A stretch of 48,742 bases of DNA from Candidatus Parcubacteria bacterium (GTDB lineage Bacteria; Patescibacteriota; Patescibacteriia; UBA1558; GWA2-36-10), in contig JABJNO010000017.1 in assembly GCA_018664825.1 (NCBI GenBank), positions 1-48,742 on the forward strand, in the 5' to 3' direction. The notes below the pieces were generated by a model that was not told the origin of the DNA, did no database searches, and was given only the letters and a program-made list of their open reading frames with translations. Below, one piece after another: positions 30,520 through 48,742 of this stretch. Made by a program: the position numbers and the translations under genes. Positions within the stretch are counted from its first letter, which is position 1, and every line of letters begins with the position of its first letter.

Positions 30520-30604
30520 TTAAGTGTTTTTTTAGTGTTTAGATCTACTAAATTATAGGAAATTTGGGAGAAATAGTCAATGATTTGGGATAAATTTACT
30601 ATTA

Positions 30605-30633
30605 TTGACAAAATAGCCAAAATATGATATAGT
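30605..30633 (+). promoter_or_regulatory. sigma70 promoter of three-gene SD-led unit
   Basis: TTGACA-AAATAGCCAAAATATGA-TATAGT, 17-nt spacer with extended -10 TG. Confidence 0.85.
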
Positions 30634-30687
30634 ATATAGTCCTAATGTACGTTTAAAACGGCTGAAAAGCCACAAAATAAGGAGAGA

Positions 30688-30936
30688 GTGATGAGAAGTT
30701 TACTTGATAAACAGATAGCGCTGTTCGCAGTTTTTGCGATGGTAGTAACATCTTTACCTACTGGCATTATCATTATGCGCACAGGAGGAATCCCTCCCTA
30801 CGGAGGCTTCTACCTTGCCAGTATTTCTATGCTGGGCTTGGGTGTGTTCGCTATTGTCCATGTTTGTAAGATGAATAATATTGTAACCGCTCGTTCGAAT
30901 ACGTTTGAAATATCTCAAACCTCAGGAGAAGAATAA
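30688..30936 (+). CDS. Small two-TM hypothetical protein
   Basis: SD AAGGAG, two hydrophobic segments. Confidence 0.7.
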   Translation: MMRSLLDKQIALFAVFAMVVTSLPTGIIIMRTGGIPPYGGFYLASISMLGLGVFAIVHVCKMNNIVTARSNTFEISQTSGEE

Positions 30937-31280
30937 TGAACTGGAAAAGCGTTGAAGCCAAGTTTGGCGAAGGCATAGCATCTCGTTGCTACAATGCCTG
31001 GCACTCTGTGTTTGGTGGTGGCCCTGATCACCATTCGGTGACCGTTGGTCTGTTTCTCGAGCAGTACGTACTTGTACTAGCTCAGATGATTCACGATCCT
31101 GGTGAGGACAAGGTCAATACCAACAACTTGATGATGGAATTGCTCCGTCGGAGCTATCCTCCGCTCTCTATTGTGAGTGGCAAGCCGACCAAGAGTCGAT
31201 TGATTCAGCTCACTACTGCTCTCCGTAAAAACGGGATCTCTACTGATCCCGAACTGGCTGGTCATTTTTCTAAAAAATGA
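30936..31280 (+). CDS. Hypothetical protein
   Basis: SD AGGAG, TAATG overlap with upstream gene. Confidence 0.7.
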   Translation: MNWKSVEAKFGEGIASRCYNAWHSVFGGGPDHHSVTVGLFLEQYVLVLAQMIHDPGEDKVNTNNLMMELLRRSYPPLSIVSGKPTKSRLIQLTTALRKNGISTDPELAGHFSKK

Positions 31281-31300
31281 TCGATGAAAAGGAGAATATC

Positions 31301-31612
31301 ATGGCGATTCCCCAGATGTGTATTGACGAAGGTCAAAAAGCTACTGTTGAACGACGTCGTTTCGAAAAACTCCGTAAAGCCAAGTTGGCTACCAGCCTTG
31401 GCAAAACCAAGGCACTAGCGGCCCTAGCTACTCGCAAAAGCGAGTCCGAGACTAGGGAGCAGGTCAACAATGGCCGACTGTACGCTGGAAGTTCGATGTA
31501 CTTCTATTGCAGTTGTGGGGATGTTTCTGACATCAAGGGTGAGGGTTTTACTGATCCTCCCAACCACACTTGCCGTCAGTGTAAGGCTCTCAAAGACAAG
31601 GGCTGGCTCTAG
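31301..31612 (+). CDS. Small Cys-motif (CxC...CxxC) protein
   Basis: SD AAGGAG before ATG 31301; YCSCG...CRQC. Confidence 0.72.
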   Translation: MAIPQMCIDEGQKATVERRRFEKLRKAKLATSLGKTKALAALATRKSESETREQVNNGRLYAGSSMYFYCSCGDVSDIKGEGFTDPPNHTCRQCKALKDKGWL

Positions 31613-31622
31613 CTAGCCATCG

Positions 31623-31657
31623 AGCCCACCGAATTATTTCGGTGGGCTTTCTTTTTT
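31623..31657 (+). terminator. Intrinsic terminator
   Basis: AGCCCACCGAA-TTAT-TTCGGTGGGCT followed by TTCTTTTTT. Confidence 0.9.
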
Positions 31658-31660
31658 GGC

Positions 31661-31948
31661 AAAAAGAAAGCCCCAAGTAAAAACTCGGGGCTTTGGTAAG
31701 GGGTCGGTGATCCCGGGGGATTGGAAGGATGCTGTCATACGACAGCAGGGATACACCGACCCGCATTGAGGGTCATCATGAAACACGAGTGTTGGGTTGG
31801 GCCCAATTGTTGAAATAAAACTCGAGTTTGCATGATGACCCATGCGCGTGGGTATGGGAGTCGCTGATGGTCAATCAAATGTGTGTATTCTCCGTCGCCT
31901 TAGGAGAAAACTTGGGTGCTTACCACCAGCGACTGTTAAGGTACTGAT
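31661..31948 (-). ncRNA. Putative structured ncRNA A (about 290 nt, three long hairpin domains)
   Basis: Own promoter TTGACA-17-TATGAT (31983-31955) and terminator (31694-31661); helices 31859-31871/31922-31934, 31770-31780/31831-31841, 31701-31709/31754-31762; no SD-led ORF. Confidence 0.72.
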
Positions 31949-31986
31949 ATTTTTATCATATTTCAGATACCAGCTTTTGTCAATTT

Positions 31987-32233
31987 AAAAAAAGAACCCC
32001 GCATCTTTTAGATACGGGGTTTGAAAGGGTGGGCTACCACCTGGCAATTGCTTGTTTGTGGTGTTGCTCCGTGAGTAGAACCTTCGGGTATAGCTCAGTT
32101 GAGCAGCTCTTTTGGTATCAGAATTGATTGTTATTACCAACCATCTCTAGAAAATGATCGGCTTACCAATCCACATTCCTGGACAACGAGTCCACACAAT
32201 ATACCTGCAGTAGCCCATCTATAACGAACGAAC
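31987..32233 (-). ncRNA. Putative structured ncRNA B (about 245 nt)
   Basis: Promoter TTGACA at 32268-32263 with TATAAT/TAATGT; closing helix UGGGCUACUGC/GUGGUAGCCCA; internal G-U-rich hairpin that pairs fully only on the minus strand; terminator 32022-31987. Confidence 0.7.
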
Positions 32234-32271
32234 TTAAGTACATTATATATATTTGTAAGTTTTGTCAATAC

Positions 32272-32700
32272 TTAGATCATAAAGACCAATACAGCGGCTG
32301 TCACAAAGCTTAGGATGATGCCGTTTATCAGTTCTATAAATAGTAGTTTTTTTGGATAGGAAGTAAGCATGTTCATATCAAAAAATCTTGGGATTATCCG
32401 AATACCAATCAACATAAAGGCAAGTACTAGAGCCATAGAGCCAAGATCTCCGTTGATAATATGAAGTCCGGGTTTTAGGTAAGAGTAAGTAGTGGCTGCT
32501 ATAAAACTTGGTATAAACATCCCTAGAAAAAACATATCAATCATAAATTTTTTGTCAGTACTATGATTATTTATGGCTGGATGTTTTTTGTGTTTTTTAT
32601 AAATTTTGGTAACAAAAGGATTCATATAAAGCATAGCAGCAACTAGGTGTGTGATTAGGGCTGCGACCACTGATCCTACAATTACAAAAGTAAAATTCAT
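32272..32700 (-). CDS. Four-TM membrane protein (DUF1761-like)
   Basis: 142 aa with four hydrophobic segments; no SD. Confidence 0.7.
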   Translation of the reverse strand: MNFTFVIVGSVVAALITHLVAAMLYMNPFVTKIYKKHKKHPAINNHSTDKKFMIDMFFLGMFIPSFIAATTYSYLKPGLHIINGDLGSMALVLAFMLIGIRIIPRFFDMNMLTSYPKKLLFIELINGIILSFVTAAVLVFMI

Positions 32701-32755
32701 AATTTTTATTTTAAATATTTTTTACTTATTAATAATACCATTTTTATTTGATAAT

Positions 32756-32784
32756 AAAAAGGCTACCAAAGTTTTGGTAGCCTT
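32756..32784 (-). terminator. Intrinsic terminator
   Basis: AAGGCTACCAAA-G-TTTTGGTAGCCTT with A-tract on + strand. Confidence 0.8.
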
Positions 32785-33130
32785 AACGGGGTATCCCGGT
32801 AAAGAGCGCGATTAGCCAGATGAACCAAGCGTAGACTGAGAAGCGGTGAAAAAGTTTGGCTGAAGTGCCGTCAGTTTTGAAAGCTTTGATTGCCCAGGCA
32901 AGATGAAATCCCATAATGACGAGAGCAATGTAGCCAAAGGCTCCGTGAGTGTGTAGCTTTGCGCCGTTGGTCTGAAGCCCCATGATAGAGGTGCCAATCA
33001 AATCGCAGATAAATGCAAATATAAAGGTAACAATCATCCAGTGTTTGAGTTGGTGTTTGATTTTTTCTGACCAGATTGACAGAGAGTATAGCAACAAGGC
33101 CATAGTGATAAAACAAATAGAAATCGTCAT
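32783..33130 (-). CDS. HsmA/TIGR03987-like small membrane protein
   Basis: LLLYS..IWSEK, F.CD.IGT..M, HG.FG..AL..M..H..WA, S..AW.IWL; SD GGAGG. Confidence 0.8.
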   Translation of the reverse strand: MTISICFITMALLLYSLSIWSEKIKHQLKHWMIVTFIFAFICDLIGTSIMGLQTNGAKLHTHGAFGYIALVIMGFHLAWAIKAFKTDGTSAKLFHRFSVYAWFIWLIALFTGIPR

Positions 33131-33172
33131 TCCTCCACCTCCCTATGGTTAAGAGTACAAATATACTTCTTG

Positions 33173-33230
33173 AAGTTAATACTTTTTAGGTGTTGTGTCA
33201 ATTGACATAAAATGACTTTTATGTTATACA
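33173..33230. promoter_or_regulatory. Back-to-back divergent sigma70 promoters
   Basis: Palindrome TGTCAATTGACA (33196-33207) supplies both -35 boxes; -10 TAACTT (minus) and TG-n-TATACA (plus), each at 17 nt. Confidence 0.75.
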
Positions 33231-33275
33231 TATCAGGTTAATTGAACCTTAAATAAACCCAAAAAGGAGAAAATT

Positions 33276-33524
33276 ATGCTGGGACAAGTCATTATTGGGC
33301 TAGTATTGTTTGCTGTGCTTTACCTTGTGTGTTGGTTGGCCTTTGGTCTTCGTTTTTTCAAGAAATGTTCTGAATGTAACAGTCGGAGAACCATAACCCA
33401 CACCGTTGATGATCTCGTAGATATCAAGGTTCCCAATAATCATGGGGAAAATAACGTATCTATGGATATCACAATATGTCATTGTGGGCATCATACCCAT
33501 GAAAAATTCGTAAGTAAAAAATAA
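33276..33524 (+). CDS. Small membrane-anchored Cys/His-motif protein
   Basis: SD AAGGAG; TM helix, CSEC...CHCGH. Confidence 0.72.
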   Translation: MLGQVIIGLVLFAVLYLVCWLAFGLRFFKKCSECNSRRTITHTVDDLVDIKVPNNHGENNVSMDITICHCGHHTHEKFVSKK

Positions 33525-33545
33525 CCTTTTAAAAAGGAGCCTGTC

Positions 33546-33830
33546 ATGGAAAAAGCTGGTGACGGCAATGTCGTTGATCTCCTGATGGAAAATCTCACAG
33601 CCATAGATGATGAGCGCAAAGAAAACTGCATTCATTGTGGTAATGAGTGGTATGCCATTCACCATAAAGATGGCGTATGCCATAGTTGTCAACAAAAAGG
33701 CCTACCTGGCCGTACTGCACTCGAACGTCGAGAGAACATCCAAGCCAAAGTTGCCTGGGCAGTCGGTATCGGTGCCCTACTCTTCCTTTTGGGTATGAGC
33801 CTGGCTGGCAAGTTGCCCGCAATTGGATAA
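33546..33830 (+). CDS. Small zinc-ribbon protein with C-terminal TM
   Basis: SD AAGGAG; CIHC...CHSC; terminator follows. Confidence 0.75.
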   Translation: MEKAGDGNVVDLLMENLTAIDDERKENCIHCGNEWYAIHHKDGVCHSCQQKGLPGRTALERRENIQAKVAWAVGIGALLFLLGMSLAGKLPAIG

Positions 33831-33835
33831 AAAAC

Positions 33836-33866
33836 AACCCCCGTTTAGCAAAAACGGGGGTTTTTA
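33836..33866 (+). terminator. Intrinsic terminator
   Basis: AACCCCCGTTT-AGCAA-AAACGGGGGTT plus T-tract. Confidence 0.85.
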
Positions 33867-33877
33867 TTAGCTTTGTA

Positions 33878-33906
33878 TTGACAAAATAGCAGTTATATGA
33901 TATGAT
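33878..33906 (+). promoter_or_regulatory. sigma70 promoter
   Basis: TTGACA-AAATAGCAGTTATATGA-TATGAT. Confidence 0.85.
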
Positions 33907-33996
33907 AATAAAATTATTTATAGTACATATCAATTTATATAATCAGAGAAAACGGTGTGAAATGTTTCTAAATTGTTCTAAGCCAAGGAGGATGTT

Positions 33997-34401
33997 ATGA
34001 GTCACGAGCCCGAAGTCAATCTCGAAACCACTGCACAGGATCACCCAAGTCCTCCCCGCAATCAGCAGGGATTCTGGGAAGGAATTCATTCTTACCTGAC
34101 CGAAATCGACAACTCTCTTAGTCCCGAGGATATCCTCGACCTTCTGACTCGTGCAACCAAGAATCCGGATTCTGTTCAATTTGATCCTAATTCTACTCAG
34201 CTTCCCCTAGGAGCTCACACTCAGATGTGGACCCGTATGGGTCTCTTCCTGGCGCTGGTCAAACAGCAAAATTGGACTGCTGAGCAGGTATTGGCTCAGC
34301 TCAACCTGGCCGCTACTGGTCAACATGAGAAACTCACCAAGCCCTGTCATATGCTGATTCAGCCTGGGGCTACTCTGGTTCCGCCGGAACATCGGCGATA
34401 A
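33997..34401 (+). CDS. Hypothetical protein
   Basis: SD AAGGAGG; GC-rich coding; own promoter and terminator. Confidence 0.75.
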   Translation: MSHEPEVNLETTAQDHPSPPRNQQGFWEGIHSYLTEIDNSLSPEDILDLLTRATKNPDSVQFDPNSTQLPLGAHTQMWTRMGLFLALVKQQNWTAEQVLAQLNLAATGQHEKLTKPCHMLIQPGATLVPPEHRR

Positions 34402-34405
34402 CAAG

Positions 34406-34436
34406 AAACCCTTCCTCTTTCGAGGAAGGGTTTTTA
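34406..34436 (+). terminator. Intrinsic terminator
   Basis: AAACCCTTCCTC-TTTC-GAGGAAGGGTTT-TT. Confidence 0.88.
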
Positions 34437-34474: not shown

Positions 34475-34503
34475 TTGACAAAATAGTGATTTTATGTTAT
34501 TCT
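34475..34503 (+). promoter_or_regulatory. sigma70 promoter
   Basis: TTGACA-AAATAGTGATTTTATGT-TATTCT. Confidence 0.85.
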
Positions 34504-34561
34504 AAGACGTTCTTTTAAAAAACAATTTTACTTTCAAAACAAGCAAAACAAGGAGAAAGAG

Positions 34562-35185
34562 ATGGAAACCATCACCACCGACATGATTCCTTATGGGAAT
34601 CTAGCTACTTGGTGGGCAGGTGGTTTTTACCTGCTCAACAAGATTTTTTTTAGCCAAGCTGAACGTTGTAAAGTAGATTCCAAAAAACGAGTGCTCAAAA
34701 TTTTTGGTTGGGCAGTTTATCTAGTAGGCTTACCTGCTTGGTGTTATCTGTTTTATTGGCGCAAGGATTCGATTGCCTTTTATGTCGAGATCAGCGGTGC
34801 TGTGATTATGATCCTGGGACTTATTGTTGCCTGGATTGGCATCAAAAAAACTCCCAAGTGGTTTGTAGTCATCGGCTTTGTTGCTGTTGGTATCGGTATG
34901 AAGTATAGCTTTCAGGATTTTGGTATCATGCAAGAGACCAAGCAGTGGCTCGAGCTAGGTATTTCTATCGGCTTTTTGGCCGGTACCCTACTCCTCGCTC
35001 TTGAGCGACGTAGTGGTTATCTCTGGTTCGTGTTTATGAATATCTCTTGCGCATTGTTGATGGGCATCGAACACAAAAGTGTTGTTCTAACTGTTCAGCA
35101 AATTGTCTCGCTTTACTTTGTGTATGATGCTTGGCGTCATTTTAGGCCAAGTGTAGACTCAATCGATGAAAGGAGAAATCAATGA
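34562..35185 (+). CDS. Multi-pass membrane protein (possibly PnuC-like transporter fold)
   Basis: SD AAGGAG; about 7 TM segments in two similar halves. Confidence 0.7.
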   Translation: METITTDMIPYGNLATWWAGGFYLLNKIFFSQAERCKVDSKKRVLKIFGWAVYLVGLPAWCYLFYWRKDSIAFYVEISGAVIMILGLIVAWIGIKKTPKWFVVIGFVAVGIGMKYSFQDFGIMQETKQWLELGISIGFLAGTLLLALERRSGYLWFVFMNISCALLMGIEHKSVVLTVQQIVSLYFVYDAWRHFRPSVDSIDERRNQ

Positions 35186-35757
35186 AGATTGAAGCGTTAA
35201 TCGGAATGACTCTCATAGCCCTGACCATGTTTTGGACTTCTTATCGTCGAGGAGATCTCACGGGTTTTCAAGCCAGTCAGAATGGCATCAAAGGTTTTTC
35301 GGCCATCAGTCATACTGGCTTATGGGGAGTTTTGTTGATTATCCCAACTCTGTGTGGGGTTATTTGGACTTACGAGGAGTCTTGGACTCATGAACAGCTT
35401 TTGCCAGCCTTGGTAGTCGGAGCCGTCATCAATCATTTGATGCATACTCTCTGGCTCTTTACCTCTCCTGATGATCACAATCTGAACCATGGTAGTTTGA
35501 CCAGAGCTGGTAAGCTCCATTATCTCTTTATGTTCTTTACCCTGGCTTCAGTGACGCTGTTTTACTTCTGTACTCCAGAAGTCAGTAGCGAGCACTTGCT
35601 TAGTGTCAGTATGTTACTTGGTGTTTATGTCACCATGAATACCTTGGTACTCAACTTGATCCGTCAAAAAAAGCTCGATGTCGTAGCACTTCTCACAACC
35701 CTGGTTGTCTGGGGAGTGCTCCTCTATCAGCTTTGGAAGTCAGCGGCAAACACTTGA
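35182..35757 (+). CDS. Multi-pass membrane protein with several His
   Basis: SD AAGGAG, ATGA overlap; HTG, HLMH, DHN, LHY. Confidence 0.72.
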   Translation: MKIEALIGMTLIALTMFWTSYRRGDLTGFQASQNGIKGFSAISHTGLWGVLLIIPTLCGVIWTYEESWTHEQLLPALVVGAVINHLMHTLWLFTSPDDHNLNHGSLTRAGKLHYLFMFFTLASVTLFYFCTPEVSSEHLLSVSMLLGVYVTMNTLVLNLIRQKKLDVVALLTTLVVWGVLLYQLWKSAANT

Positions 35758-35792
35758 TAGTGTTGGTATGCTGCTTTTTGAAAAGTAAAATA

Positions 35793-35826
35793 ATACGGGT
35801 GCGAATTTATTCGCACCCGTTTTTTT
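35793..35826. terminator. Bidirectional terminator
   Basis: ACGGGTGCGAAT-TT-ATTCGCACCCGT plus T-tract, between convergent genes. Confidence 0.88.
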
Positions 35827-36064
35827 ATCCAGAAATTTCCTGGTAGTCTTCAGGATCTTGATCCCAGCTAGGAACAAAGATCCAGAGAAGTATGTAGATG
35901 CCGAGACCGACACCATAGTAGCAGAGGGCGGCGGCCCACAGGAGCCTGATAATCCAGGTTTTGACTCCTAACTTGTAGGCCAATCCAGCGGCTACGCCAC
36001 CAATCCAGTGATCGTCCTCTATCTTACGGAAACTTCTTGATTTTAGTTTATCTATTTCACTCAT
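35825..36064 (-). CDS. pspC: PspC domain protein
   Basis: IGGVAAGLA..LG....IRL, YI.LWIFVP; SD AGGAGG; promoter TTGACA-17-TAAGAT at 36148-36120. Confidence 0.9.
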   Translation of the reverse strand: MSEIDKLKSRSFRKIEDDHWIGGVAAGLAYKLGVKTWIIRLLWAAALCYYGVGLGIYILLWIFVPSWDQDPEDYQEISG

Positions 36065-36171
36065 GTTTTACCTCCTAAGTAGTTTTATGAGTTCTTGAAT
36101 GTACTTTTGCGGATAATTTATCTTATTAAAAATAAGAGTATTTGTCAATTTTATGTTATAATACACGGGTT

Positions 36172-36654
36172 ATGAATAAAAAAGGCTTTACATTATTGGA
36201 AATGCTTTTGGTGATTGCCATTGTTGGTATCTTGTCTTCTGTTACAGTAGTAAACTTGAGTCAGCTCAAAGCCAAGGCTCGGGATGCAAATCGTATATCA
36301 GATGTTGAACAAATCCAAAAAGTTGTTGAAATATATTTTGATGACTATGGTGAATATCCAAACACTAGCTGCCAAGGTCTAGCGGGTATAGTTGGTTGTG
36401 CATCGGCATTAAATTCAGGTACCTGGATTTCAGATTTAAATATGATCTTGCCAAATGATCCTATTCATGGACAAGAGGGTCATATATCGGATTATAGTGA
36501 TAATGTGCATTCGTATATTTTTACTAGAGGTGCTGGGATACCAGAAGAATATTATTATATTTTATTCAAAAGAGAGGCTGGTGCTCAGACAGACGAATGC
36601 GATGGAAGTCCTTATGTTGGTTGGTCTTGTCTGGGTGGTGGGGATTTACCTTAA
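36172..36654 (+). CDS. Type IV pilin / pseudopilin
   Basis: Class III signal KKG/FTLLEML, KARDANRISD, YP, PNDP, C-terminal Cys pairs. Confidence 0.92.
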   Translation: MNKKGFTLLEMLLVIAIVGILSSVTVVNLSQLKAKARDANRISDVEQIQKVVEIYFDDYGEYPNTSCQGLAGIVGCASALNSGTWISDLNMILPNDPIHGQEGHISDYSDNVHSYIFTRGAGIPEEYYYILFKREAGAQTDECDGSPYVGWSCLGGGDLP

Positions 36655-36740
36655 ATAAAATTTTAGCTCAAAAACACCTAAAGTATAATTGAGTAGGTGT
36701 TTTTTTATTTACTTCATTAGGAAAGAGCTTTTGATGGTAT

Positions 36741-36769
36741 TTGACATAATAATAAAATTATCTTAATAT
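36741..36769 (+). promoter_or_regulatory. sigma70 promoter of ncRNA C
   Basis: TTGACA-17 nt-TAATAT, downstream of the pilin terminator (about 36670-36710). Confidence 0.75.
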
Positions 36770-36775
36770 CAGCTT

Positions 36776-37010
36776 AGTTCATTGATAAGGTGCTCGGAAA
36801 AACAAAAGCCGTTTGGGGTGTAATGGTTCGAATCCTAACATTTGGGCGGAGATCTATATCTTTTGTTGTAGAATACGTGGGAGACTTTGACGTTGTGACG
36901 CTAGTCACAAAATAGTCGTCAGTGAAATACCACTGCTTAAGATCTCTAGATCAAAACCTCCGAGCACCCACTTACATCAAGCCTCTAGAATATCTAGAGG
37001 CTTTTTATTT
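36776..37010 (+). ncRNA. Putative stand-alone ncRNA C containing a 23S rRNA L1-stalk (H76-H78) mimic and a tRNA T-loop-like motif
   Basis: Closing helix GGUGCUCGGA 36789-36798/UCCGAGCACC 36959-36968; GGUUCGAAUCC 36825-36835; 36867-36933 aligns without gaps to the L1-stalk head of 23S rRNA as recalled; terminator 36979-37010. Confidence 0.82.
36979..37010 (+). terminator. Intrinsic terminator of ncRNA C
   Basis: AAGCCTCTAGA-ATA-TCTAGAGGCTT-TTTATTT. Confidence 0.9.
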
Positions 37011-37027
37011 TAAAATAAAAAGACACA

Positions 37028-37213
37028 CTATGACAGTGTGTCTTGTTTTGGATCTTCTCGGAGACACTCGGGTACATGATTCATCACTCGATGAAATTCT
37101 TCGTCAATTTCTTGGCGGATTACTTTGGGGTCTAGTGAAAGTCCTTTCTCGGTTCTGATTGCAATGGCACGAGCCAAAAAAACATCACGGATAATCCAAA
37201 CTGGACCTTGCAT
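37028..37213 (-). CDS. Small hypothetical protein
   Basis: SD AAAGGAG; stop lies in terminator AAGACACACT/AGTGTGTCTT. Confidence 0.65.
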   Translation of the reverse strand: MQGPVWIIRDVFLARAIAIRTEKGLSLDPKVIRQEIDEEFHRVMNHVPECLREDPKQDTLS

Positions 37214-37261
37214 TGTAGTCTCCTTTGCTTTTGGTTTGTATGAACGATTATATTTTATATA

Positions 37262-37462
37262 TTATTCTTTTGATTCATCAGACATTTTTTGTAAAATAAT
37301 GATTCTTTGTTGTTCTCTTATAAGTTTATCTTTGTAAGATATTTTTACTTCTTGCCAAACATAAAGTGCAGTTATAAAAATAACGGAAATAAAAATAAAA
37401 ATTATCATAATTTCATAAATATTATGAAATCCCTTTCGATTTTTAGGTAGATGCATGTTCAT
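37262..37462 (-). CDS. Small single-TM protein
   Basis: 66 aa; KG-F...E resembles a degenerate prepilin start. Confidence 0.55.
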   Translation of the reverse strand: MNMHLPKNRKGFHNIYEIMIIFIFISVIFITALYVWQEVKISYKDKLIREQQRIIILQKMSDESKE

Positions 37463-37465
37463 ATT

Positions 37466-37867
37466 TTAAATATTGAAAACAAAGTCAAAGAGAATACCAG
37501 CAATCAAAGCAATACCTGAAAGAATAAAGATAACATAATAATTCCATCTTTCTTTGGATGAAACCAAAGTTCTCAGTATATATTCCAAAGCCTTGTTGTC
37601 ATCTGGAGTGAGTTCGTCTAGAGTATTGGCGTCTAGTTTTTCTTTTAATCTATGCTCCACTATCAAGTTGGAACGTTTTTTTGATATATCAAAGCGATGA
37701 ATAAAGTATAAGATAAATCCAATAGTACCAACATACCAAGATATTTTTACCCAAGTATCACTATAATAGTTCAATACTATGATAGCTCGATAAGCTAGTG
37801 TAGCTACGATGCCTGCCCAAAAATAAAAAAGTCGAACTGATTTTGGGCTTGTTTTTATATCTTCCAT
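37466..37867 (-). CDS. Three-TM membrane protein
   Basis: 133 aa with three hydrophobic segments. Confidence 0.75.
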   Translation of the reverse strand: MEDIKTSPKSVRLFYFWAGIVATLAYRAIIVLNYYSDTWVKISWYVGTIGFILYFIHRFDISKKRSNLIVEHRLKEKLDANTLDELTPDDNKALEYILRTLVSSKERWNYYVIFILSGIALIAGILFDFVFNI

Positions 37868-37936
37868 ATTTAAATAATTTATTTATTATGTTTATATTAT
37901 ATCAAAAATAATATATTTTAGCGATTTTAATATATA

Positions 37937-37965
37937 TTGACAAAATAGTGTATTTATGCTATTAT
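37937..37965 (+). promoter_or_regulatory. sigma70 promoter
   Basis: TTGACA-AAATAGTGTATTTATGC-TATTAT. Confidence 0.85.
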
Positions 37966-38009
37966 ATATAGTTCATTGTTCGTCGAAAAATTTCAAATCT
38001 TAGGAGGTC

Positions 38010-38723
38010 GTGATGACAAGGTTACTATCTTGGTTTCAAGTCATCAAGACTTGGGCGAAATCTAGAATAGTTGAGATACTATTTTGGTTCCAGGTCATCA
38101 TGATCTGGGTTTATGCAATTCCACAAGCCAAACACCTGATCGCTGGTAAGACCACGGGTCTCACCCTCGCTCTTTGGCTCTGTTTCTTGGGCTATCTTGT
38201 AGTAGGGCTCTCGTTGTCTATCCTGGCTTATCGTGAGCCGATCCTAAACAAGGAAACAGAAGAAGAAAGATTAAAGGAAAAGAAAAAACGTCTTTATACT
38301 ATCCTCATCTTTGCTCTGATTGGCCTTGTGATGTTTGGCCTTTTTCTCTTGGCCATCAAAACTGTCCGATGGACAACTGGAGATACTGCCGTCAGTATAG
38401 TAGTCGTCGTCCTATCGATACTTACGAGTTGTTATTTTCGTAGTATCAAGGATCCGATGGCTCGTGGTTGGCTAGCAGTATGGTGCAAAGGAGTGGCTCA
38501 GCTTTGGGCAGGTTACGTGATGTTTACATCCGTCAGTTCAGAGTGGATACCTCCATTGTCTATGTTGGCTACCCACGGTACTATGTGGACTCGTTTTTTC
38601 CAAGTATACTCCCAAGGTAAAAGTGGTGGTTGGGATAGACCAACCAAGGGTCTGATGTTGGGCGAAAGTTCCAATGTCATTTCTTGGTCATTGGTCACCA
38701 TCCTCTGGTTTTTTCTAAGATAA
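38010..38723 (+). CDS. Multi-pass membrane protein, PQ-loop-like
   Basis: SD AGGAGG; AIPQ....GKTTGLTL resembles a PQ-loop repeat; about 7 TM. Confidence 0.7.
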   Translation: MMTRLLSWFQVIKTWAKSRIVEILFWFQVIMIWVYAIPQAKHLIAGKTTGLTLALWLCFLGYLVVGLSLSILAYREPILNKETEEERLKEKKKRLYTILIFALIGLVMFGLFLLAIKTVRWTTGDTAVSIVVVVLSILTSCYFRSIKDPMARGWLAVWCKGVAQLWAGYVMFTSVSSEWIPPLSMLATHGTMWTRFFQVYSQGKSGGWDRPTKGLMLGESSNVISWSLVTILWFFLR

Positions 38724-38729
38724 CAAAAA

Positions 38730-38765
38730 CAGGACCAGCAAGAAATTGCTGGTCCTTTTCATTTT
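38730..38765 (+). terminator. Intrinsic terminator
   Basis: AGGACCAGCAA-GAAA-TTGCTGGTCCT-TTT. Confidence 0.9.
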
Positions 38766-38770
38766 AATCA

Positions 38771-38987
38771 AAAAAGCTCTACTAGATAGTAGGGCTTTGT
38801 TTTAAAGTAAAAGGAAAACCCGCGAAAGTTTTCCAGGGAAGAAGATGGTTGGGTTGATACTCTTTGTCCGAAGACTCTGAATTTTGGCCACTGACCAGTT
38901 CTTGAATTTGTCGCATGCGACATGGTGTCCGTAAGGACGTCTGGGCTTTCGCGGGTGATTACCTAACTGATTACTCAGTAGGTACTC
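38771..38987 (-). ncRNA. Putative structured ncRNA D, copy 1
   Basis: Promoter TTGACA-16-TAATAT with extended TG (39018-38991); GUAA-capped 5' hairpin; 11-bp helix ACCCGCGAAAG/CUUUCGCGGGU; C(UUCG)G hairpin; terminator 38798-38771; paralogue at 44.5 kb. Confidence 0.8.
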
Positions 38988-39146
38988 GTTATATTATCAG
39001 ACTGACAGAATCTGTCAAGCGATTTATGCGAGAGTTATCAACAATATAAAATCTGGTAGATAAAAGTCGACTAAATTACGTTGTAGCCAAATGGATACAA
39101 AAAAACTTTTATAGCGTCTTGTGGGTATAGTGGTTGTTGTTCAGAC

Positions 39147-39175
39147 TTGACAAAATACATTTTTTAGTGTAGAAT
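39147..39175 (+). promoter_or_regulatory. sigma70 promoter of DEAD-box helicase
   Basis: TTGACA-17-TAGAAT about 95 nt upstream of ATG. Confidence 0.8.
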
Positions 39176-39272
39176 ATTCTATTATTATGCTTCAACTTTA
39201 AAGAAGCAGACTCGGAACCTCTCGTTTTATATAGATACGACCAGATGGATCATTGGGTCGTAATTTTTATAT

Positions 39273-40616
39273 ATGACAAAAACAACAAGTAAAGACTTGG
39301 ATTTTAATGGATTGGGTATCTCTCCAAGCATATTAAAGCAATTGAAAAAATTGAACTTTAATATACCAACACCTATACAACATCAATCAATACCTATTGC
39401 TATAAAAGGTCAGGACATGATGGGCATTGCCCAGACTGGTACTGGTAAGACTTTGGCTTTTGGTATTCCAATGCTACAAATAGTACAGGCCAACAATAGT
39501 GCTGGTCTAGTAGTTTTGCCTACTCGTGAGCTAGCTGCTCAAGTAGATCAATCTCTCAAAACACTTGGGAGTGCTTTTGGTATCCGTACAGCTATTTTGA
39601 TTGGCGGAACTCCAATAGAACCTCAAATGAGAGCATTGAACAAAAGACCTCATGTCATCATAGCTACTCCTGGAAGATTGATAGATCATATCAATAGAAA
39701 GAGAGCTATCTTGAGCAATGTAAAAATTTTGGTATTGGACGAAGCTGATCGTATGCTCGATATGGGATTTGAGCCAGATATCAAAAGAATATTAGCCGCT
39801 ATCCCCGCTGGCAGACGTCAGACTATGCTTTTTTCAGCTACTATGCCGATGAAAATAACCAAGCTAGCCGAAGGCTATTTGCGCTCACCTATCCGAGTAG
39901 AAGTTGCTCCAGCTGGAAGTACTGCCAAAAGTATAGAGCAAGAAGTATTTATTATACCCAAACCAAAGAAACTTTCTTTATTGGACAGTCTGTTGTCTGA
40001 ATACAAAGAGCGTGTGCTTGTATTTAGCAGAACCAAGCATGGTGCAAAAAAGATTACTAGAACACTAAACTCACTAGGACACAAAGCTGCAGAAATACAT
40101 TCAAATAGATCATTGACCCAACGAACTAGAGCTCTCAAGGATTTCAAATCCGGTGCAGTTCGAGTTTTGATAGCTACTGATATTGCTTCACGTGGTATTG
40201 ATGTCAAAGATATAGAATTGGTAATCAATTATGATTTACCTGAGCAGGCCGAAGATTATGTTCATCGTATTGGACGTACTGGTAGAGCTGGTAAAAAAGG
40301 TAAAGCCATTTCATTTGTTGCCCCTGATCAAAAAAGAGATTTATTTTTAATCGAACGACTTGTTCGTGTAAAATTACCCATCAAACCATTGCCTGAAATG
40401 AAGGAGCATATTTCTATACCAAAAGAGCCAATCAGAAGAAGTTTTGTTGGGCGAGGTAGTAGATCAGCTAGTGGAAGATCCACAGGTGGTAGATCTGGTA
40501 GATCTGGTAGATCTAGCAGGCCAAGTAGACCAAATAAACCAGCCAAGAGTTCTGGTGGTTTCAAAAGTCGTCGTCGTAGACCAGGTAAAAGTGCTCGTAA
40601 CAAGACTAGTCAATAA
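39273..40616 (+). CDS. DEAD-box RNA helicase (RhlE/CshA-like) with basic R/G/S tail
   Basis: Q motif PTPIQ, AQTGTGKT, PTRELA, TPGR, DEAD, SAT, HRIGRTGR. Confidence 0.97.
   Translation: MTKTTSKDLDFNGLGISPSILKQLKKLNFNIPTPIQHQSIPIAIKGQDMMGIAQTGTGKTLAFGIPMLQIVQANNSAGLVVLPTRELAAQVDQSLKTLGSAFGIRTAILIGGTPIEPQMRALNKRPHVIIATPGRLIDHINRKRAILSNVKILVLDEADRMLDMGFEPDIKRILAAIPAGRRQTMLFSATMPMKITKLAEGYLRSPIRVEVAPAGSTAKSIEQEVFIIPKPKKLSLLDSLLSEYKERVLVFSRTKHGAKKITRTLNSLGHKAAEIHSNRSLTQRTRALKDFKSGAVRVLIATDIASRGIDVKDIELVINYDLPEQAEDYVHRIGRTGRAGKKGKAISFVAPDQKRDLFLIERLVRVKLPIKPLPEMKEHISIPKEPIRRSFVGRGSRSASGRSTGGRSGRSGRSSRPSRPNKPAKSSGGFKSRRRRPGKSARNKTSQ
40488..40514 (+). repeat. (GGTAGATCT)x3 coding tandem repeat (GRS)3
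   Basis: Seen directly in the helicase tail. Confidence 0.85.
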
Positions 40617-41116
40617 TGAGAGTACCTATTCGAAAAGCTGGTAAATATACTTTTATAAAACCCGATCCATATATTACTCAAGAAAAATTTGATGAGCTCG
40701 TCAAAAATCTAGAAAGATTGAAAAAAGTTGTTCAACCAAAGCTGATAGGAGAAGTCAAAAGATTGGGAGAAATGGGAGATTTTTCTGAAAATACAGCATA
40801 TCAAATGGCCAAAGGTAAGCTACGTGGTATAAATCAAAAGATAATCCAGACTGAAAAACAACTTGGCATTGCCAAAATTATCAAGACAGACAAAAATGCT
40901 CTGGTAGTTCAGATAGGTAGTAGAGTGATTGTTGAAATAAACAAACAAACTCAAAAATTTCAGATTTTGGGATCACTAGAAACTAGTCCTGGTACAGGAA
41001 CAATTTCTCATCAGTCCCCTCTTGGCAAAGCTTTGCTGAATAAAAAACTGGGAGATGTAGTACAAGTAAAAACTGAGGACAGGAAAATAGAATATAAAAT
41101 AATAAATATAGAATAA
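40616..41116 (+). CDS. GreA/GreB family transcript cleavage factor
   Basis: YIT.E, GDFSENTAY, V.IGS.V, ISHQSPLGKALL. Confidence 0.92.
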   Translation: MRVPIRKAGKYTFIKPDPYITQEKFDELVKNLERLKKVVQPKLIGEVKRLGEMGDFSENTAYQMAKGKLRGINQKIIQTEKQLGIAKIIKTDKNALVVQIGSRVIVEINKQTQKFQILGSLETSPGTGTISHQSPLGKALLNKKLGDVVQVKTEDRKIEYKIINIE

Positions 41117-44484: not shown

Positions 44485-44686
44485 AAAAAATCGCCTATTG
44501 GGCGATTTTGAAGTAAAAGGAAAACCCGCGAAAGTTTTCCAGAAGAAGAGTTTTTAGGTTGGGTTGTTACTCGTTGTCCGAAGACTCTGAATTTTTGGCC
44601 ACTGACCATTCTTCTTGTTTCTTTTGACGGAAACGTTCTAGTTGCTTTCGCGGGTGATTACCGAACTGATTACTCAGTAGGTACTC
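44485..44686 (-). ncRNA. Putative structured ncRNA D, copy 2
   Basis: Homologous to 38805-39018 including the promoter (44717-44690); same helices; different terminator (44509-44485). Confidence 0.8.
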
Positions 44687-44723
44687 GTTATATTAGCAGA
44701 CCCACAGGATCTGTCAAATATAG

Positions 44724-45316: not shown

Positions 45317-45436
45317 TTATTTCTTCTTTTTATTTTTTTTGGCTTCTAGCATTACTCTTTTTGCTTCCAATCTTTTTGGAGTTTTTTTGGAGCTAGATTT
45401 TTGCTTTCTGCCGACTGGATGTCTTCTTTTGGCCAT
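45317..45436 (-). CDS. 39-aa extremely basic peptide (not in ORF track)
   Basis: MAKRRHPVGRKQKSSSKKTPKRLEAKRVMLEAKKNKKKK; followed by hairpin plus U-tract (45310-45283). Confidence 0.7.
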   Translation of the reverse strand: MAKRRHPVGRKQKSSSKKTPKRLEAKRVMLEAKKNKKKK

Positions 45437-45534
45437 ATTGTTAGTTTATATTGATTACTCAAGTATACTAGCTGTTTTTGGGGATTATGGCAATAGTTGA
45501 GCCTACAATGCAGCATAGCTAATCACAATTTCTA

Positions 45535-45975: not shown

Positions 45976-46061
45976 AGCTATTATTTAATGATTATATTTA
46001 TTTTACCTTATTTTTATAAAAATAAAAAGGGCATTTCGTAAATACGAAACGCCCTGTTGGT

Positions 46062-46808
46062 TTACTTGACTCCGCAGAGCAGAATCAGTCTTTTGTCTTT
46101 ATCAAGGCCCATGGGGATACAACAATTGTTGAAGCTTGGTCCAGTGAGCAAAAACAGCAAACTCATAAACTGGATATCCAGTTGTAGTCCGCATGCCACA
46201 ATAGCAAACAAAAATGTCCTAAACAAGACATAATGTAGTCTGGGGATCATGGTATGGTGCATACCGTAGCGAAATGCGAGCTCCATGGCGTGCATAGTTG
46301 CCAGACCATCACAAGCATCTCGCAATTTTTCACTGTCTTCGGGATTGCCTTCAAACCATGCCTTGGCCTTGGGATGAGGATTGTCCATAATGTGTTGGAA
46401 CAATCTTTCGGAAGTAGTGACAATGTGGAGATCATCAGGGTTGATACAACAGATATCACTCAGATTAGCACCAACCTCCTTATACCAGAAGATGGCTTTT
46501 TTGAGTTCGTCAATATAACCGCGCCAATCCGAGGGAAAAGCTGATTCCTGATTGTTACCCAATTGAATAGGCATGGATAATCTGATCAACTTGCGAGCAA
46601 GGTAATCTCCTTGCTTGGGAAATAGATCGTGGGTCAGTTCACACAGTTCTTGACTGAGCTCTTGTAGCTTGCGTCCGAAGTTTGGTTGGTTAACTATAGC
46701 TTGGAGCTGTACGTTGATTCCTGGTAGGTCTCGAGCTCCTGATTGTACTGAGCCTGTCAGGCTAGCTACTAGATCAAAAAAACGTTTGTAGTCTCGGCTG
46801 CTATCCAC
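46062..46808 (-). CDS. Hypothetical protein
   Basis: GC-richer ORF; probable GTG start 46808 after AAGGA (ORF-track TTG 46841); terminator 46054-46021. Confidence 0.7.
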   Translation of the reverse strand: MDSSRDYKRFFDLVASLTGSVQSGARDLPGINVQLQAIVNQPNFGRKLQELSQELCELTHDLFPKQGDYLARKLIRLSMPIQLGNNQESAFPSDWRGYIDELKKAIFWYKEVGANLSDICCINPDDLHIVTTSERLFQHIMDNPHPKAKAWFEGNPEDSEKLRDACDGLATMHAMELAFRYGMHHTMIPRLHYVLFRTFLFAIVACGLQLDIQFMSLLFLLTGPSFNNCCIPMGLDKDKRLILLCGVK

Positions 46809-46887
46809 AGCGCACCATCCTTGTTGAAATGAACAGGCCAATCCGCTATGAACAGATTGGGTTATCTATGTGTTTAGATAACATTTA

Positions 46888-46959
46888 GACCTTAACACCT
46901 ATCTTTAAATAAGGCAAAAAGCCTTAAATATTGACAAAACATATAATATATGTTATAAA
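46888..46959. promoter_or_regulatory. Divergent double-promoter module, copy 1
   Basis: Minus TTGCCT-17-TAAGGT and plus TTGACA-17-TATAAA; core nearly repeated at 48476-48545. Confidence 0.75.
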
Positions 46960-47006
46960 TAGGTGTTTCGAATAGTTGTTTCAAAACGAATTAAGGAGGC
47001 ATAATT

Positions 47007-47522
47007 GTGAGCGATCAGCTAAAATCTCTCAAGGCTAGACTGACGAGTCACTTGGAAACCTTGTTTCCACCCGAGGCTGTTCAATACATTGTTGAACGCG
47101 TCTTGGTGGTCACCAATCTCTACGACCAACCCCCTGAGGCTCTGTCTCTAGCGGTTGAAAGGATGGAGAAAATCTCCAAGGTCTTTAGTAGCAAGCAGTT
47201 GCTACTTTTCCTCAAGAGAGTCAACCCGACGATTATTCGTCAGTTTGATTTTTTGGAAATCGGAGATGTTGGACTGGATGCAGCCAAATGTATCATGGAG
47301 GGAGCAGAGCTTGCCGAGTATCGTGATTATTATCACCGACGCAAGGCTGAGGCTATCAGCCAAAGAAAAGCTGATATGCTGCAACTCCAAGATGATTATA
47401 TCTGGGAAATTTTGACCAGTAAAAATTGGCGCAAGATCAAGCCATCGACTGGTCATGTCAACGAGATGCCCCGAGCCAGAGCTATTTCTACTCCAATGGG
47501 TGGTCAACCCAAAAAGAGATAG
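47007..47522 (+). CDS. Hypothetical protein
   Basis: SD AAGGAGG, GTG start; ends ISTPMGGQPKKR. Confidence 0.75.
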   Translation: MSDQLKSLKARLTSHLETLFPPEAVQYIVERVLVVTNLYDQPPEALSLAVERMEKISKVFSSKQLLLFLKRVNPTIIRQFDFLEIGDVGLDAAKCIMEGAELAEYRDYYHRRKAEAISQRKADMLQLQDDYIWEILTSKNWRKIKPSTGHVNEMPRARAISTPMGGQPKKR

Positions 47523-47542
47523 ACAGTTCTATCACAAAACAC

Positions 47543-47575
47543 AAGAGCTCTTCTGAGGAAGAGCTCTTTTTATTT
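47543..47575 (+). terminator. Intrinsic terminator
   Basis: AAGAGCTCTTC-TGAG-GAAGAGCTCTT-TTTATTT. Confidence 0.88.
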
Positions 47576-47600
47576 AAATTGGTGAAGAGTATTTCAAAAT

Positions 47601-47804
47601 TTATAATAATCCAGAATAAGATCCCATAATAGTATTCATCATACTAGGTAAAATAAATATCAAGATAATAATAGGTATAACAAATAATAATAGAGTTATG
47701 ACTAGGCTCCAAACAAACATTTTTTTGGTCGTAGCTATAGTCTGATGGATCTGATTTATTTTGGTATCCATATCCTCTATTTTTTTGTATAATTTTTCGT
47801 CCAT
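47601..47804 (-). CDS. Small coiled-coil plus TM protein
   Basis: 67 aa, one long TM segment. Confidence 0.7.
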   Translation of the reverse strand: MDEKLYKKIEDMDTKINQIHQTIATTKKMFVWSLVITLLLFVIPIIILIFILPSMMNTIMGSYSGLL

Positions 47805-47808
47805 AGTT

Positions 47809-48102
47809 TTAAATTGTAAATTTTATAATAATATATGACATAATAACTATATAAAATGATATAAAGAACAAATAAGTCAATCTAGCCTCTCTCTTTTTTA
47901 AAGCCCAGAGCAATAAAAGTGGTAACAACGGAAGTAAATATAAGGGTCTAAGGTCTCCACCTTTTATAATGTCCAACATAGGAAATTTGATAGACATCAA
48001 ATACATAAAAAGAATATAGAATAAAAAAGAAAGAATTCCAAAAATCCAAATTGTGTTTGTGTTTATTTTTAAGCTTAGTTCTTTTACTTTTTCTGAGGGC
48101 AT
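47809..48102 (-). CDS. Small three-TM protein
   Basis: 97-aa hydrophobic ORF. Confidence 0.6.
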   Translation of the reverse strand: MPSEKVKELSLKINTNTIWIFGILSFLFYILFMYLMSIKFPMLDIIKGGDLRPLYLLPLLPLLLLWALKKREARLTYLFFISFYIVIMSYIIIKFTI

Positions 48103-48230
48103 TTTCTTATTTAAAATTTTAAAACATGGCCCAGGCCACCTTCTCCGGCTTCGCCATTCACCTTGTTTTTATTATATCTTATTTTATGTAAATAAAAAAG
48201 GCGTATGTTTTTAACATACGCCTTGTAGAT

Positions 48231-48422
48231 TTATTCTTTCATTTTTGGAAGACTGGGAAAGCGTCCTGGTCTATTGTATATCCCACCTCGTAGACGGCAT
48301 GTTTCTGTGCAATGTTTACAATCGGATCGATCTGGAGTAGGACGTCCTGGTCTGCCCAAGTGTGTCATAAGGCAAATCATTTGATCACTGGGCAATGAAC
48401 TCGTTGGCTCGGGAATGTGCAT
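48231..48422 (-). CDS. Small Cys-rich protein (C...CxxCxxxC)
   Basis: SD GAGGT before ATG 48422; terminator AAGGCGTATGTT/AACATACGCCTT at 48198-48224. Confidence 0.65.
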   Translation of the reverse strand: MHIPEPTSSLPSDQMICLMTHLGRPGRPTPDRSDCKHCTETCRLRGGIYNRPGRFPSLPKMKE

Positions 48423-48475
48423 GTTTTGACCTCTTTTTTTATTCAAAATGAAAGGATTGTACGTTTTTCACATAA

Positions 48476-48545
48476 ATACTAACATTTATCTTTAAATAGG
48501 GCAAAAAGCTTATATATTGACAAAATTGACTAAATATGATATACT
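48476..48545. promoter_or_regulatory. Divergent double-promoter module, copy 2
   Basis: Minus TTGCCC-17-TAGTAT and plus TTGACA-17-TATACT. Confidence 0.75.
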
Positions 48546-48618
48546 ATGATGTTCCCTCGAGTAAAGATGGGGTTTAATACTCCTCCTTTGCGAACTTGTC
48601 CCTTACAAAAGGAAGAAT

Positions 48619-48742
48619 ATGCGTTTTCAAATCTTCTTAAATTCAGTAGTCGCTTTTTTGACCCTGGGTTTTTTCTTTATCACTCTCAACGTATCAACCG
48701 AAAAGGCCCCTGAAAATGCCACTGTCGCTGCTATGTGTGTAG
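48619..48742 (+). CDS. Partial CDS with N-terminal hydrophobic segment
   Basis: AAAGGA SD, MRFQIFLNSVVAFLTLGFFFITL...; runs off the window. Confidence 0.55.
   Translation, partial: MRFQIFLNSVVAFLTLGFFFITLNVSTEKAPENATVAAMCV

Follow-up and report, generated by a model that had tools for sequence, protein, structure and literature searches.

Shine-Dalgarno-led, GC-richer cassettes beside a Shine-Dalgarno-less core: two probable expression architectures in a putative Patescibacteria genome and its relatives

The stretch of DNA analysed here (positions 1-48,742, hereafter the window) makes up the initial 48.7 kb of a 241-kb contig of the draft genome G000, in which most genes lack a Shine-Dalgarno (SD) sequence and a minority, arranged in small units that we call cassettes, possess one. 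We propose that two expression architectures probably coexist in G000 and in three of four further genomes analysed from its order, and that the cassettes are translated by the cell's own ribosomes. Core genes are AT-rich, SD-less and devoid of a -35 box, with -10 boxes lying 10-40 nucleotides (nt) before the start codon, or are packed in operons. The flexible minority, 101-148 of 1,149 genes, forms autonomous cassettes with a consensus -35 and an extended -10 element and a predicted leader of about 45 nt, whose opening element, GTTCnTTT.AA, is conserved in the lineage. AAGGAG(G) lies 6-9 nt from the start codon, and between one and nine GC-richer genes, A-poor and C-rich at third codon positions, are closed by a GC-rich hairpin terminator. 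The cargo of these cassettes is accessory (nucleotide and NAD salvage, regulators, defence-like nucleases, small membrane proteins, orphans); they occupy slots between conserved core blocks and are replaced between genera. They would represent the lineage's own gene pool, exchanged within the lineage, and not genes of foreign donors, and the cell's own ribosomes would read them by ordinary SD/anti-SD pairing.

G000 comprises 25 contigs and 1.16 Mb at 36% GC, with an estimated completeness of 98.7% and an estimated contamination of 2.66%. Genetic code table 11 reads the genome well, giving 1,153 genes and 88.7% coding DNA with a caller based on open reading frames (ORFs) and hexamers; the genome-wide class statistics cover 1,149 genes. 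Four classes were defined: S genes (SD and gene GC of at least 0.40; 101 genes), s genes (SD, AT-rich; 47), G genes (GC-rich without a called SD; 42) and core genes (the rest; 959). The s genes are near chance level. The 101 S genes span 5.6% of the DNA of G000 and the core about 85-90% of the genome. S genes are found on nearly all contigs, where they alternate with core genes as single genes or runs of up to nine. A search for uL30, which matched in 13 of 14 control genomes, found none in G000, and this protein is described as absent from all bacteria of the candidate phyla radiation (CPR) (PMC9297842). Together with gene relatives labelled Patescibacteria, this points to a probable CPR/Patescibacteria bacterium from seawater. 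Half or more of the words sampled from a 10-kb stretch occur in at least 16 sequencing runs from more than a dozen studies.

SD strength and base composition are linked across the genome. When starts were called blind to the SD, duplex energies of -8 kcal/mol or lower were found in 75 of 1,149 genes, versus 29 in control windows inside genes and 19 in windows 52-70 nt upstream, and intermediate energies were depleted at starts. Starts were refined by allowing a strong SD to shift the start among near-equal candidates, and the refined set contains an SD in 148 of 1,149 genes. The GC content of third codon positions (GC3) was 0.392 in SD genes versus 0.290 in the others (Mann-Whitney p = 1.6e-38). 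SD frequency rose with gene GC, from 47 of 949 genes below 0.40 to 38 of 119 between 0.40 and 0.44 and 63 of 81 at 0.44 or above, and gene GC predicted SD status with an area under the curve of 0.85 on the SD-blind starts. A two-component mixture of gene GC gave a Bayesian information criterion of -3687 versus -3590.

The regions flanking S genes share a common design. Among genes with upstream gaps of at least 70 nt, TTGACA was found upstream of 40 of 80 S genes versus 36 of 386 core genes, and a terminator-like hairpin follows 61 of 97 S genes versus 138 of 935 core genes. The consensus of 44 aligned S upstream regions consists of attATTGACAAAA, about 17 nt, an extended -10 element (TaTgnTAtaaT-like) and then tGTTc, and in 29 of these regions the -35 box and the ATG are 75-91 nt apart. 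The leaders of S genes yielded the motif GTtCtTTtaAA in a motif search; a matrix trained on S genes places it 21-59 nt upstream of the start codon for 50 of 83 S genes versus 18 of 427 core genes. A thermometer-like hairpin between leader and SD was considered and rejected as too weak, the probability that the SD is paired with the first 12 nt being 0.28 versus 0.15 for a shuffled 5' end (n = 47, Wilcoxon p = 0.005).

The coding sequences differ as well. At third codon positions, A and C have frequencies of 0.209 and 0.259 in S genes, versus 0.337 and 0.139 in core genes. GC is likewise higher at first and second positions, and S proteins are enriched in Cys, His and Arg and depleted in Lys, Ile and Asn. 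High-expression codon bias was examined as a source of this usage. The ribosomal protein operon and the EF-Tu gene (contig C1) lack an SD and have a GC3 of only 0.26, with C at 0.12 of third positions; the codon usage of S genes is therefore not the high-expression bias of the genome. The strongest avoidance by the S class concerns the Ile codon ATA (0.11 versus 0.39 of Ile codons). ARAGORN detected 41 tRNAs in G000, including a tRNA-Ile(UAU) and, in addition to the usual tRNA-Phe with anticodon GAA, one with AAA.

Core genes present another picture. In those with an upstream gap of at least 100 nt, TAnAAT boxes concentrate at -40 to -10, TTGACA is rare and SD-like words are absent. Operon-internal ribosomal protein genes also lack an SD, save two chance-level or coding-constrained cases. 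On this pattern, core transcripts would be leaderless or have very short leaders, and initiation would be SD-independent. Beside the SD-led S genes, this points to two modes of translation initiation in one cell. For the core-type DEAD helicase gene of the window (39147-39273), a consensus promoter, TTGACA-17-TAGAAT, precedes a leader of about 90 nt that contains a hairpin and no SD; long SD-less leaders therefore exist too.

We then compared G000 with an order set of 86 genomes that includes it. The cassette pattern, defined as TTGACA, 50-80 nt, AGGAG, 5-10 nt and ATG, was counted 52 times in G000 and 0-44 times per genome in the remaining 85 (zero only in G076), versus 0-4 times in a reversed control. 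Among the matches listed, those from other families display the same GTTCnTT-type leader start. Three relatives carry a GC-richer SD class of their own. G015, of the same family and another genus (930 kb analysed), has an SD in 128 of 906 genes and in 64 of the 85 genes at GC 0.44 or above. In G007 (200 kb analysed), 27 of 182 genes have an SD, with a GC of 0.446 versus 0.337. In G033, of another family with 47.9% GC (400 kb analysed), the figures are 73 of 367 genes and 0.524 versus 0.472, the SD being present in 33 of the 37 genes of the top GC decile; core genes of G033 also lack an SD. The leader matrix trained on G000 matched 22 of 72 S genes in G015, 12 of 22 in G007 and 11 of 32 in G033, versus 7 of 368, 3 of 86 and 1 of 142 core genes, and at a control offset it matched only 2, 0 and 1 S genes, respectively. 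The recurrence of leader and cassette in relatives indicates that the expression signals belong to the lineage.

Comparison with G015 revealed both inheritance and turnover. Reciprocal best hits exist for 27 of 101 S genes (27%) versus 556 of 959 core genes (58%). Among the 27 S pairs, the G015 partner is an S gene in 20 cases and has an SD only in 4, and 19 pairs are syntenic; only 2 of the 556 core pairs turn S in G015. The GC3 of S orthologue pairs is 0.427 in G000 versus 0.405 in G015 (rho = 0.67), and the GC3 of S genes with and without a G015 orthologue (0.427 versus 0.439) shows no trend with residence. One gene, recognized by eye as thymidine-kinase-like, is flanked by core genes in both G000 and G015 and has a GC of 0.43 and an SD in both. 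The remaining 74 of 101 S genes have no reciprocal best hit in G015, and slots hold differing S genes: the slot of the radical SAM gene of the window holds two unrelated S genes in G015, and others sit after the AlaRS orthologue. In 400 kb of G005, a genome of the same order, 4 of 101 S genes match anything, versus 346 of 959 core genes. The data support an S class that is heritable across genera and families yet flexible between genera.

The window illustrates this organization. The initial annotation had listed 15 starts there with strong SDs, set in GC-richer genes that nearly all have their own promoter and terminator, among core genes preceded only by A/T-rich sequence. All 15 starts indeed have an SD-like purine block 5-10 nt upstream, with duplex energies with ACCUCCUUA of -6.5 to -13.2 kcal/mol, 13 of them at -7.5 kcal/mol or below; the weaker ones are 30936 (-7.4 kcal/mol) and 48422 (-6.5 kcal/mol). 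Another 41 starts taken from the ORF list, a few of them doubtful, are mostly A/T-rich upstream, with no spaced AGGAG-type SD by eye. Pfam confirms SecA, AlaRS, the DEAD helicase and GreA among the SD-less genes, and 36142 is a pilin. The initial observation is thus confirmed, and it holds across the genome. With our own caller, positions 30600-48742 hold 10 S genes, 2 GC-rich genes without an SD, 1 AT-rich SD gene and 13 core genes, and positions 1-30600 hold 1 S gene, 2 AT-rich SD genes and 29 core genes. A scan of the window found 47 terminator-like sites versus 12.5 +/- 3.5 in shuffles, strong hairpins immediately 3' of 31612, 33830, 34401, 35757, 38723 and 47522, and promoters matching 11 of 12 positions 5' of 30688, 33997 and 38010. 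The features are as follows.

11289..12827, + strand: single S unit, a gene for a B12-binding radical SAM protein, GC 0.46, SD GTGAGGT.
25461..30519, - strand: core genes for SecA (28214-25461), a 120-amino-acid (aa) protein and AlaRS (30519-28639), AT-rich and without SD; all three have syntenic orthologues in G015 (63-77% identity).
30605..31649, + strand: three-gene S unit with promoter TTGACA-17-TATAGT (30605-30633), genes 30688-30936, 30936-31280 and 31301-31612, each with an SD, and terminator 31622-31649.
32759..33130, - strand: S-type gene 33130-32783 of the HsmA family, missed by our own caller, with SD GGGAGGTGGAGG (-13.2 kcal/mol) and terminator 32784-32759.
33276..33862, + strand: S genes 33276-33524 and 33546-33830, both with AAAGGAG, and terminator 33836-33862; the G015 orthologue of gene 33546 likewise has an SD.
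33878..34433, + strand: S unit with promoter TTGACA-17-TATGAT (33878-33906), the orphan gene 33997-34401 (GC 0.52, SD AAGGAGG) and hairpin 34406-34433.
34475..35820, + strand: two-gene S unit with promoter 34475-34503, membrane-protein genes 34562-35185 and 35182-35757, and a bidirectional terminator (35795-35820).
35795..36148, - strand: S unit with promoter 36148-36120, PspC-domain gene 36064-35825 (TAGGAGGT) and the shared terminator 35820-35795.
37020..37213, - strand: small S gene 37213-37028 (61 aa), SD AAAGGAG, hairpin 37044-37020.
37937..38756, + strand: S unit with promoter TTGACA-17-TATTAT (37937-37965), membrane-protein gene 38010-38723 (TAGGAGG) and terminator 38731-38756.
39273..41116, + strand: core genes for the DEAD-box helicase and GreA, without SD.
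46028..46808, - strand: S gene 46808-46062 (248 aa, GC 0.45), terminator 46055-46028.
46931..47568, + strand: S unit with TTGACA at about 46931, a leader with GTTTCAAAAC, gene 47007-47522 (AAGGAGG) and terminator 47543-47568.
48231..48422, - strand: small ORF, a borderline S member with the weaker SD AGAGGT (-6.5 kcal/mol).

The window also contains two paralogous ORF-less units of about 190 nt (38813-39018 and 44519-44717, both on the - strand), which are 81% identical and share a TTGACA-16-TAATAT promoter, GTACCT 5 nt past the -10 box and the identical terminator GGAAAACTTTCGCGGGTTTTCC. This unit, which resembles a noncoding RNA gene, has only two copies in the genome and no Rfam match at E <= 1, and no Rfam family reached its gathering score anywhere in the window.

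Among the S proteins of G000, searches against Pfam and NCBIfam identified PP2C, NAPRTase, Prs-like, NadE, NAD kinase, NUDIX, PNP, nucleoside deoxyribosyltransferase, GT3 and a pyridoxal-phosphate (PLP) decarboxylase. Other cargo comprises GNAT, HTH_17, NYN, PD-(D/E)XK, HATPase_c_3, SPFH, a ClpX-like AAA protein, a vault-like protein, sigma70 region 4, PspC and HsmA. Tdk and Hpt are also present, and many S proteins belong to no family. A nine-gene S island (G000:C3:202547-211406) includes a PP2C phosphatase, four unknowns, NAPRTase, a Prs-like protein and NAD synthase among its genes. It is syntenic with an S island of G033 (G033:C1:101-112 kb) at 37-62% identity, the core median there being 40%, and looks like a transferable module for the salvage of NAD and phosphoribosyl pyrophosphate. 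The vault-like protein (942 aa; G000:C11:6025-8853) matches the shoulder and repeat domains of Major Vault Protein (Pfam E 1.9e-23 and 2.8e-10). In a 360-aa S protein (G000:C23:65288-66370) Pfam sees sigma-70 region 4 only; three other genes, with sigma-70 region 2, are of the core type.

Homologues were searched for three S genes. A second, divergent gene of the TrpRS/TyrRS family (G000:C23:21449-23939), 34% identical to the core copy and followed by a gene for a PLP-dependent decarboxylase, has best non-self matches of 58-61% in metagenome-assembled genomes (MAGs) of Parcubacteria, Falkowbacteria and Patescibacteria. In three inspected MAGs, its homologues have an SD and a GC above that of their flanks, and in two of them TTGACA lies upstream. 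At one CPR MAG locus (L059), an ORF of similar length lies 3' of the TrpRS-like gene. The radical SAM gene of the window has best matches of 60-62%; no match among 5.8 billion proteins exceeds 62%, and the only top match with a name is from Patescibacteria. The 134-aa gene at 33997 is nearly an orphan, with a single match of 82%. Phages were considered as a general source of S genes and rejected: the 10 S proteins of the window matched no PHROG family. For one S protein, relatives were found on an IMG/VR contig (57%) and in an uncultured phage of 485 kb (38.8%), but the viral copy is AT-rich and its 160 upstream nt contain no S-type signals.

The full-length 16S genes of relatives all (12 of 12) end in GGATCACCTCCTTTC, the canonical anti-SD. 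In 11 of the 12, the gene is directly followed by TCTAAGGAG, which is able to pair with the anti-SD in the precursor. The gene for bS21, rpsU, was found in 72 of the 86 order genomes, with no match in 14, including G033. In G000 (G000:C7:35728-35973, - strand), it has a GC of 0.30 and carries AGAAAGAGAGGTG 8 nt before a GTG start. The extended SD AGAAAGnnAGGTG is present in the rpsU leaders of all 33 genomes examined, 5-9 nt before a start that is mostly GTG, with a median duplex energy of -18.2 kcal/mol (range -22.7 to -16.2). With the same procedure, only 3 of 39 long ORFs neighbouring rpsU had an SD, and an alignment of 21 rpsU leaders from four families shows block and spacing conserved. 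Beyond the order, 12 of 101 genomes of the class matched the rpsU pattern and the reversed control gave a similar number, so that this search is uninformative. Among SD-bearing AT-rich genes are those for L24, a T4SS-pilin-like protein, an HD protein, GT1 and Mfd; neither bS18 nor bS6 was found among the SD-bearing AT-rich genes scanned. The AT-rich T4SS-pilin-like gene (G000:C9:16144-16491) has an rpsU-like extended SD, AGAAAGGGGGTGA, which is kept in G015.

These observations bear on how the two classes should be explained. As an extension of the two-architecture reading, and compatible with it, the anti-SD of the order could normally be occluded by a bS21/bS18/bS6-like arrangement, S cassettes being translated mainly by ribosomes lacking bS21, as a conditionally translated share of the genome, and rpsU being autoregulated through its extended SD; we regard this as possible, though doubtful. 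It would account for core genes being SD-less while the anti-SD of relatives is intact and for the extended SD kept by the AT-rich rpsU in 33 of 33 genomes versus 3 of 39 neighbours, and its model is documented: in Bacteroidia the anti-SD is held by bS21, bS18 and bS6, and an extraordinary SD is seen at rpsU alone (PMC13000453, PMC9976891). However, bS21 of G000 has no special likeness to its Flavobacterium johnsoniae counterpart, matching chain 7jil_z at E 0.24 in a whole-sequence comparison in which the best match was a Firmicute-type chain (E 3.5e-4). Moreover, 14 of 86 genomes, including the S-rich G033, have no bS21 match, and rpsU is nearly the sole SD gene in Flavobacteriales, whereas about a tenth of the genes have one here. 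Because bS21 is not Bacteroidia-like by sequence and G033 is rich in S genes without a detected bS21, we treat the gate as a lead and not as a finding. A stronger version would have this order of ultra-small marine bacteria divide its genome between two translation systems: the leaderless or SD-less core would be read by standard ribosomes with a masked anti-SD, and the heritable S genome with its common leader only once the anti-SD is freed, for instance by loss of bS21, as one regulon serving, for example, host contact or starvation, with GC-rich coding poor in A at third positions kept by selection and not reflecting origin; this seems rather unlikely. The initial annotation had offered a stage-specific translation mode as one form of a separate expression programme, and, given rpsU, a Bacteroidia-like gate is conceivable in that role. 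Its other form, RNAs tuned to the ribosomes of a host cell, is hardly credible. It would draw only on the contrast itself, SD-led GC-richer genes in an otherwise SD-less genome whose lineage probably depends on hosts; all 12 relatives have a canonical anti-SD, rpsU itself is SD-led, and the cargo acts inside its producer (Tdk, Hpt, NadE, NAD kinase, a ClpX-like ATPase and a sigma-like protein). No RNA-export feature was found, though no systematic search was made. The separate programme therefore stands as an architecture, with a conserved design, distinct codon usage and inheritance, and not as tuning for a host.

The S genes could also be recent imports from GC-richer, SD-using foreign donors, still bearing donor signals and composition. 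We consider this unlikely, although it would fit the higher GC at all three codon positions, the enrichment in Cys, His and Arg and depletion in Lys, Ile and Asn, the accessory functions with their patchy distribution and the xenologous second TrpRS; up to 13% of Patescibacteria genome length is reported as transferred (PMC12455944). The same report places most of these transfers among Patescibacteria. Promoter, leader motif and spacing are uniform and conserved across families of the order, 24 of 27 orthologues retain the SD, and 19 of 27 are syntenic at a core identity of about 68%. GC3 has no residence trend, the GC excess occurs in hosts of 36% and 48% GC, and no match above 62% was found for the two larger genes searched. 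The initial annotation had named recent independent transfers from diverse SD-using donors as the case that would speak against it, and the three genes searched, with best matches of 58-61%, 60-62% and a lone 82%, did not show it. A standing force is favoured over a transient foreign signature because the offset is found in hosts of differing GC, orthologue GC3 is stable and there is no residence trend; these argue for a force such as biased gene conversion in often-exchanged genes or selection on mRNA composition. Chimeric contigs joining two organisms through faulty binning or assembly would be conceivable in a metagenome-assembled draft of 25 contigs with 2.66% estimated contamination, and are highly improbable here: on nearly all contigs, single S genes or short runs are interspersed with core genes, and the same pattern with syntenic S genes occurs in other genomes, some of 1-2 contigs. 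In addition, four other seawater runs yielded contigs that match the window with zero differences and bridge core/S junctions, at 29405-31184, 29959-30852, 36398-38085 and 36564-38834.

Several points weigh against two architectures read by the cell's own ribosomes. G005 has an SD in only 18 of 367 genes, with no link to GC; since it is nearly without such a class, the class is dispensable. S proteins have a median identity to G015 of 43.8%, versus 67.9% for core proteins, and a divergence above that of the flanks would also fit repeated replacement by foreign alleles. The GC excess of the S class, about 0.07 in G000 and G015, 0.11 in G007 and 0.05 in G033, is left unaccounted for by this reading. 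The homologue search covers three of about 100 S genes, and look-alike clusters of two S proteins are labelled as other phyla and phages, which are leads only. The only 16S gene of G000 (G000:C15:45-807, - strand) breaks off at the edge of its contig, near model position 800 (Rfam SSU), and a search of the assembly for five conserved motifs of the missing 3' half found none; as this half lies outside the assembly, the anti-SD of G000 is deduced from relatives. Gene and start calls come from a simple ad hoc ORF/hexamer caller. Finally, two clean peaks are not seen in gene GC, which shows a main peak and a heavy tail on the GC-rich side.

Known systems resemble the cassettes in part. Phage morons are autonomous promoter-gene-terminator units of a composition unlike that of their neighbours, inserted between conserved genes. 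The cassettes share the individual promoter and terminator and the deviant composition, but they lie in a cellular chromosome with housekeeping neighbours (SecA, AlaRS, helicase and GreA), have a lineage-specific leader and, for the 10 window S proteins, match no PHROG family. Integron cassettes likewise form arrays of small mobile cargo genes in hot spots, but are normally promoterless and are attC-bounded beside an integrase, whereas the units described here have a promoter and a terminator of their own (the comparison covers promoter and terminator). In genomes of the type modelled by GeneMarkS-2, the SD is reportedly carried by operon-internal genes; here, in contrast, operon-internal core genes are SD-less and the SD coincides with an atypical autonomous class. 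The likeness to such mixed leaderless and SD genomes (PMC6028130) lies in a promoter box near many starts, a second SD class and atypical genes that are modelled apart. Horizontal transfer in Patescibacteria, as described in PMC12455944, has a similar genome share, mostly within-phylum exchange and metabolic cargo; the word "promoter" is absent from its text, which does not describe an expression architecture, a leader or a persistent GC offset. The closest parallel on the side of translation is provided by the SD-blind ribosomes of Bacteroidia (PMC13000453, PMC9976891, PMC7797042), where the anti-SD is canonical, most genes are SD-less and rpsU is distinguished by extended SD pairing with the 16S tail. 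The present case differs in phylum, in a bS21 that is not Bacteroidia-like by sequence and in SD-strong genes that make up about a tenth of the total and are not almost only rpsU. Main texts of the papers listed on bS21, rpsU and the anti-SD do not mention Patescibacteria, and no description of the two gene classes was found in the main texts searched.

The existence of two classes has practical consequences for annotation: gene finders with one model would misplace the starts of one class, and an SD-blind caller misplaced 65 starts here. A GC-richer class persists in genomes of 36% and 48% GC and in syntenic orthologues whose neighbours are about 68% identical. Since the GC excess persists in this way across hosts, simple drift to host composition is inadequate as an account, and the cassettes constitute a natural test bed for biased gene conversion versus selection on mRNA composition. 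The conserved extended SD of rpsU outside Bacteroidia suggests that gating of the anti-SD by bS21 may have arisen more than once. If the cassettes answer to it, the ribosome would control the accessory genome in these host-dependent bacteria, and the switching of physiological states in CPR bacteria would become directly testable.

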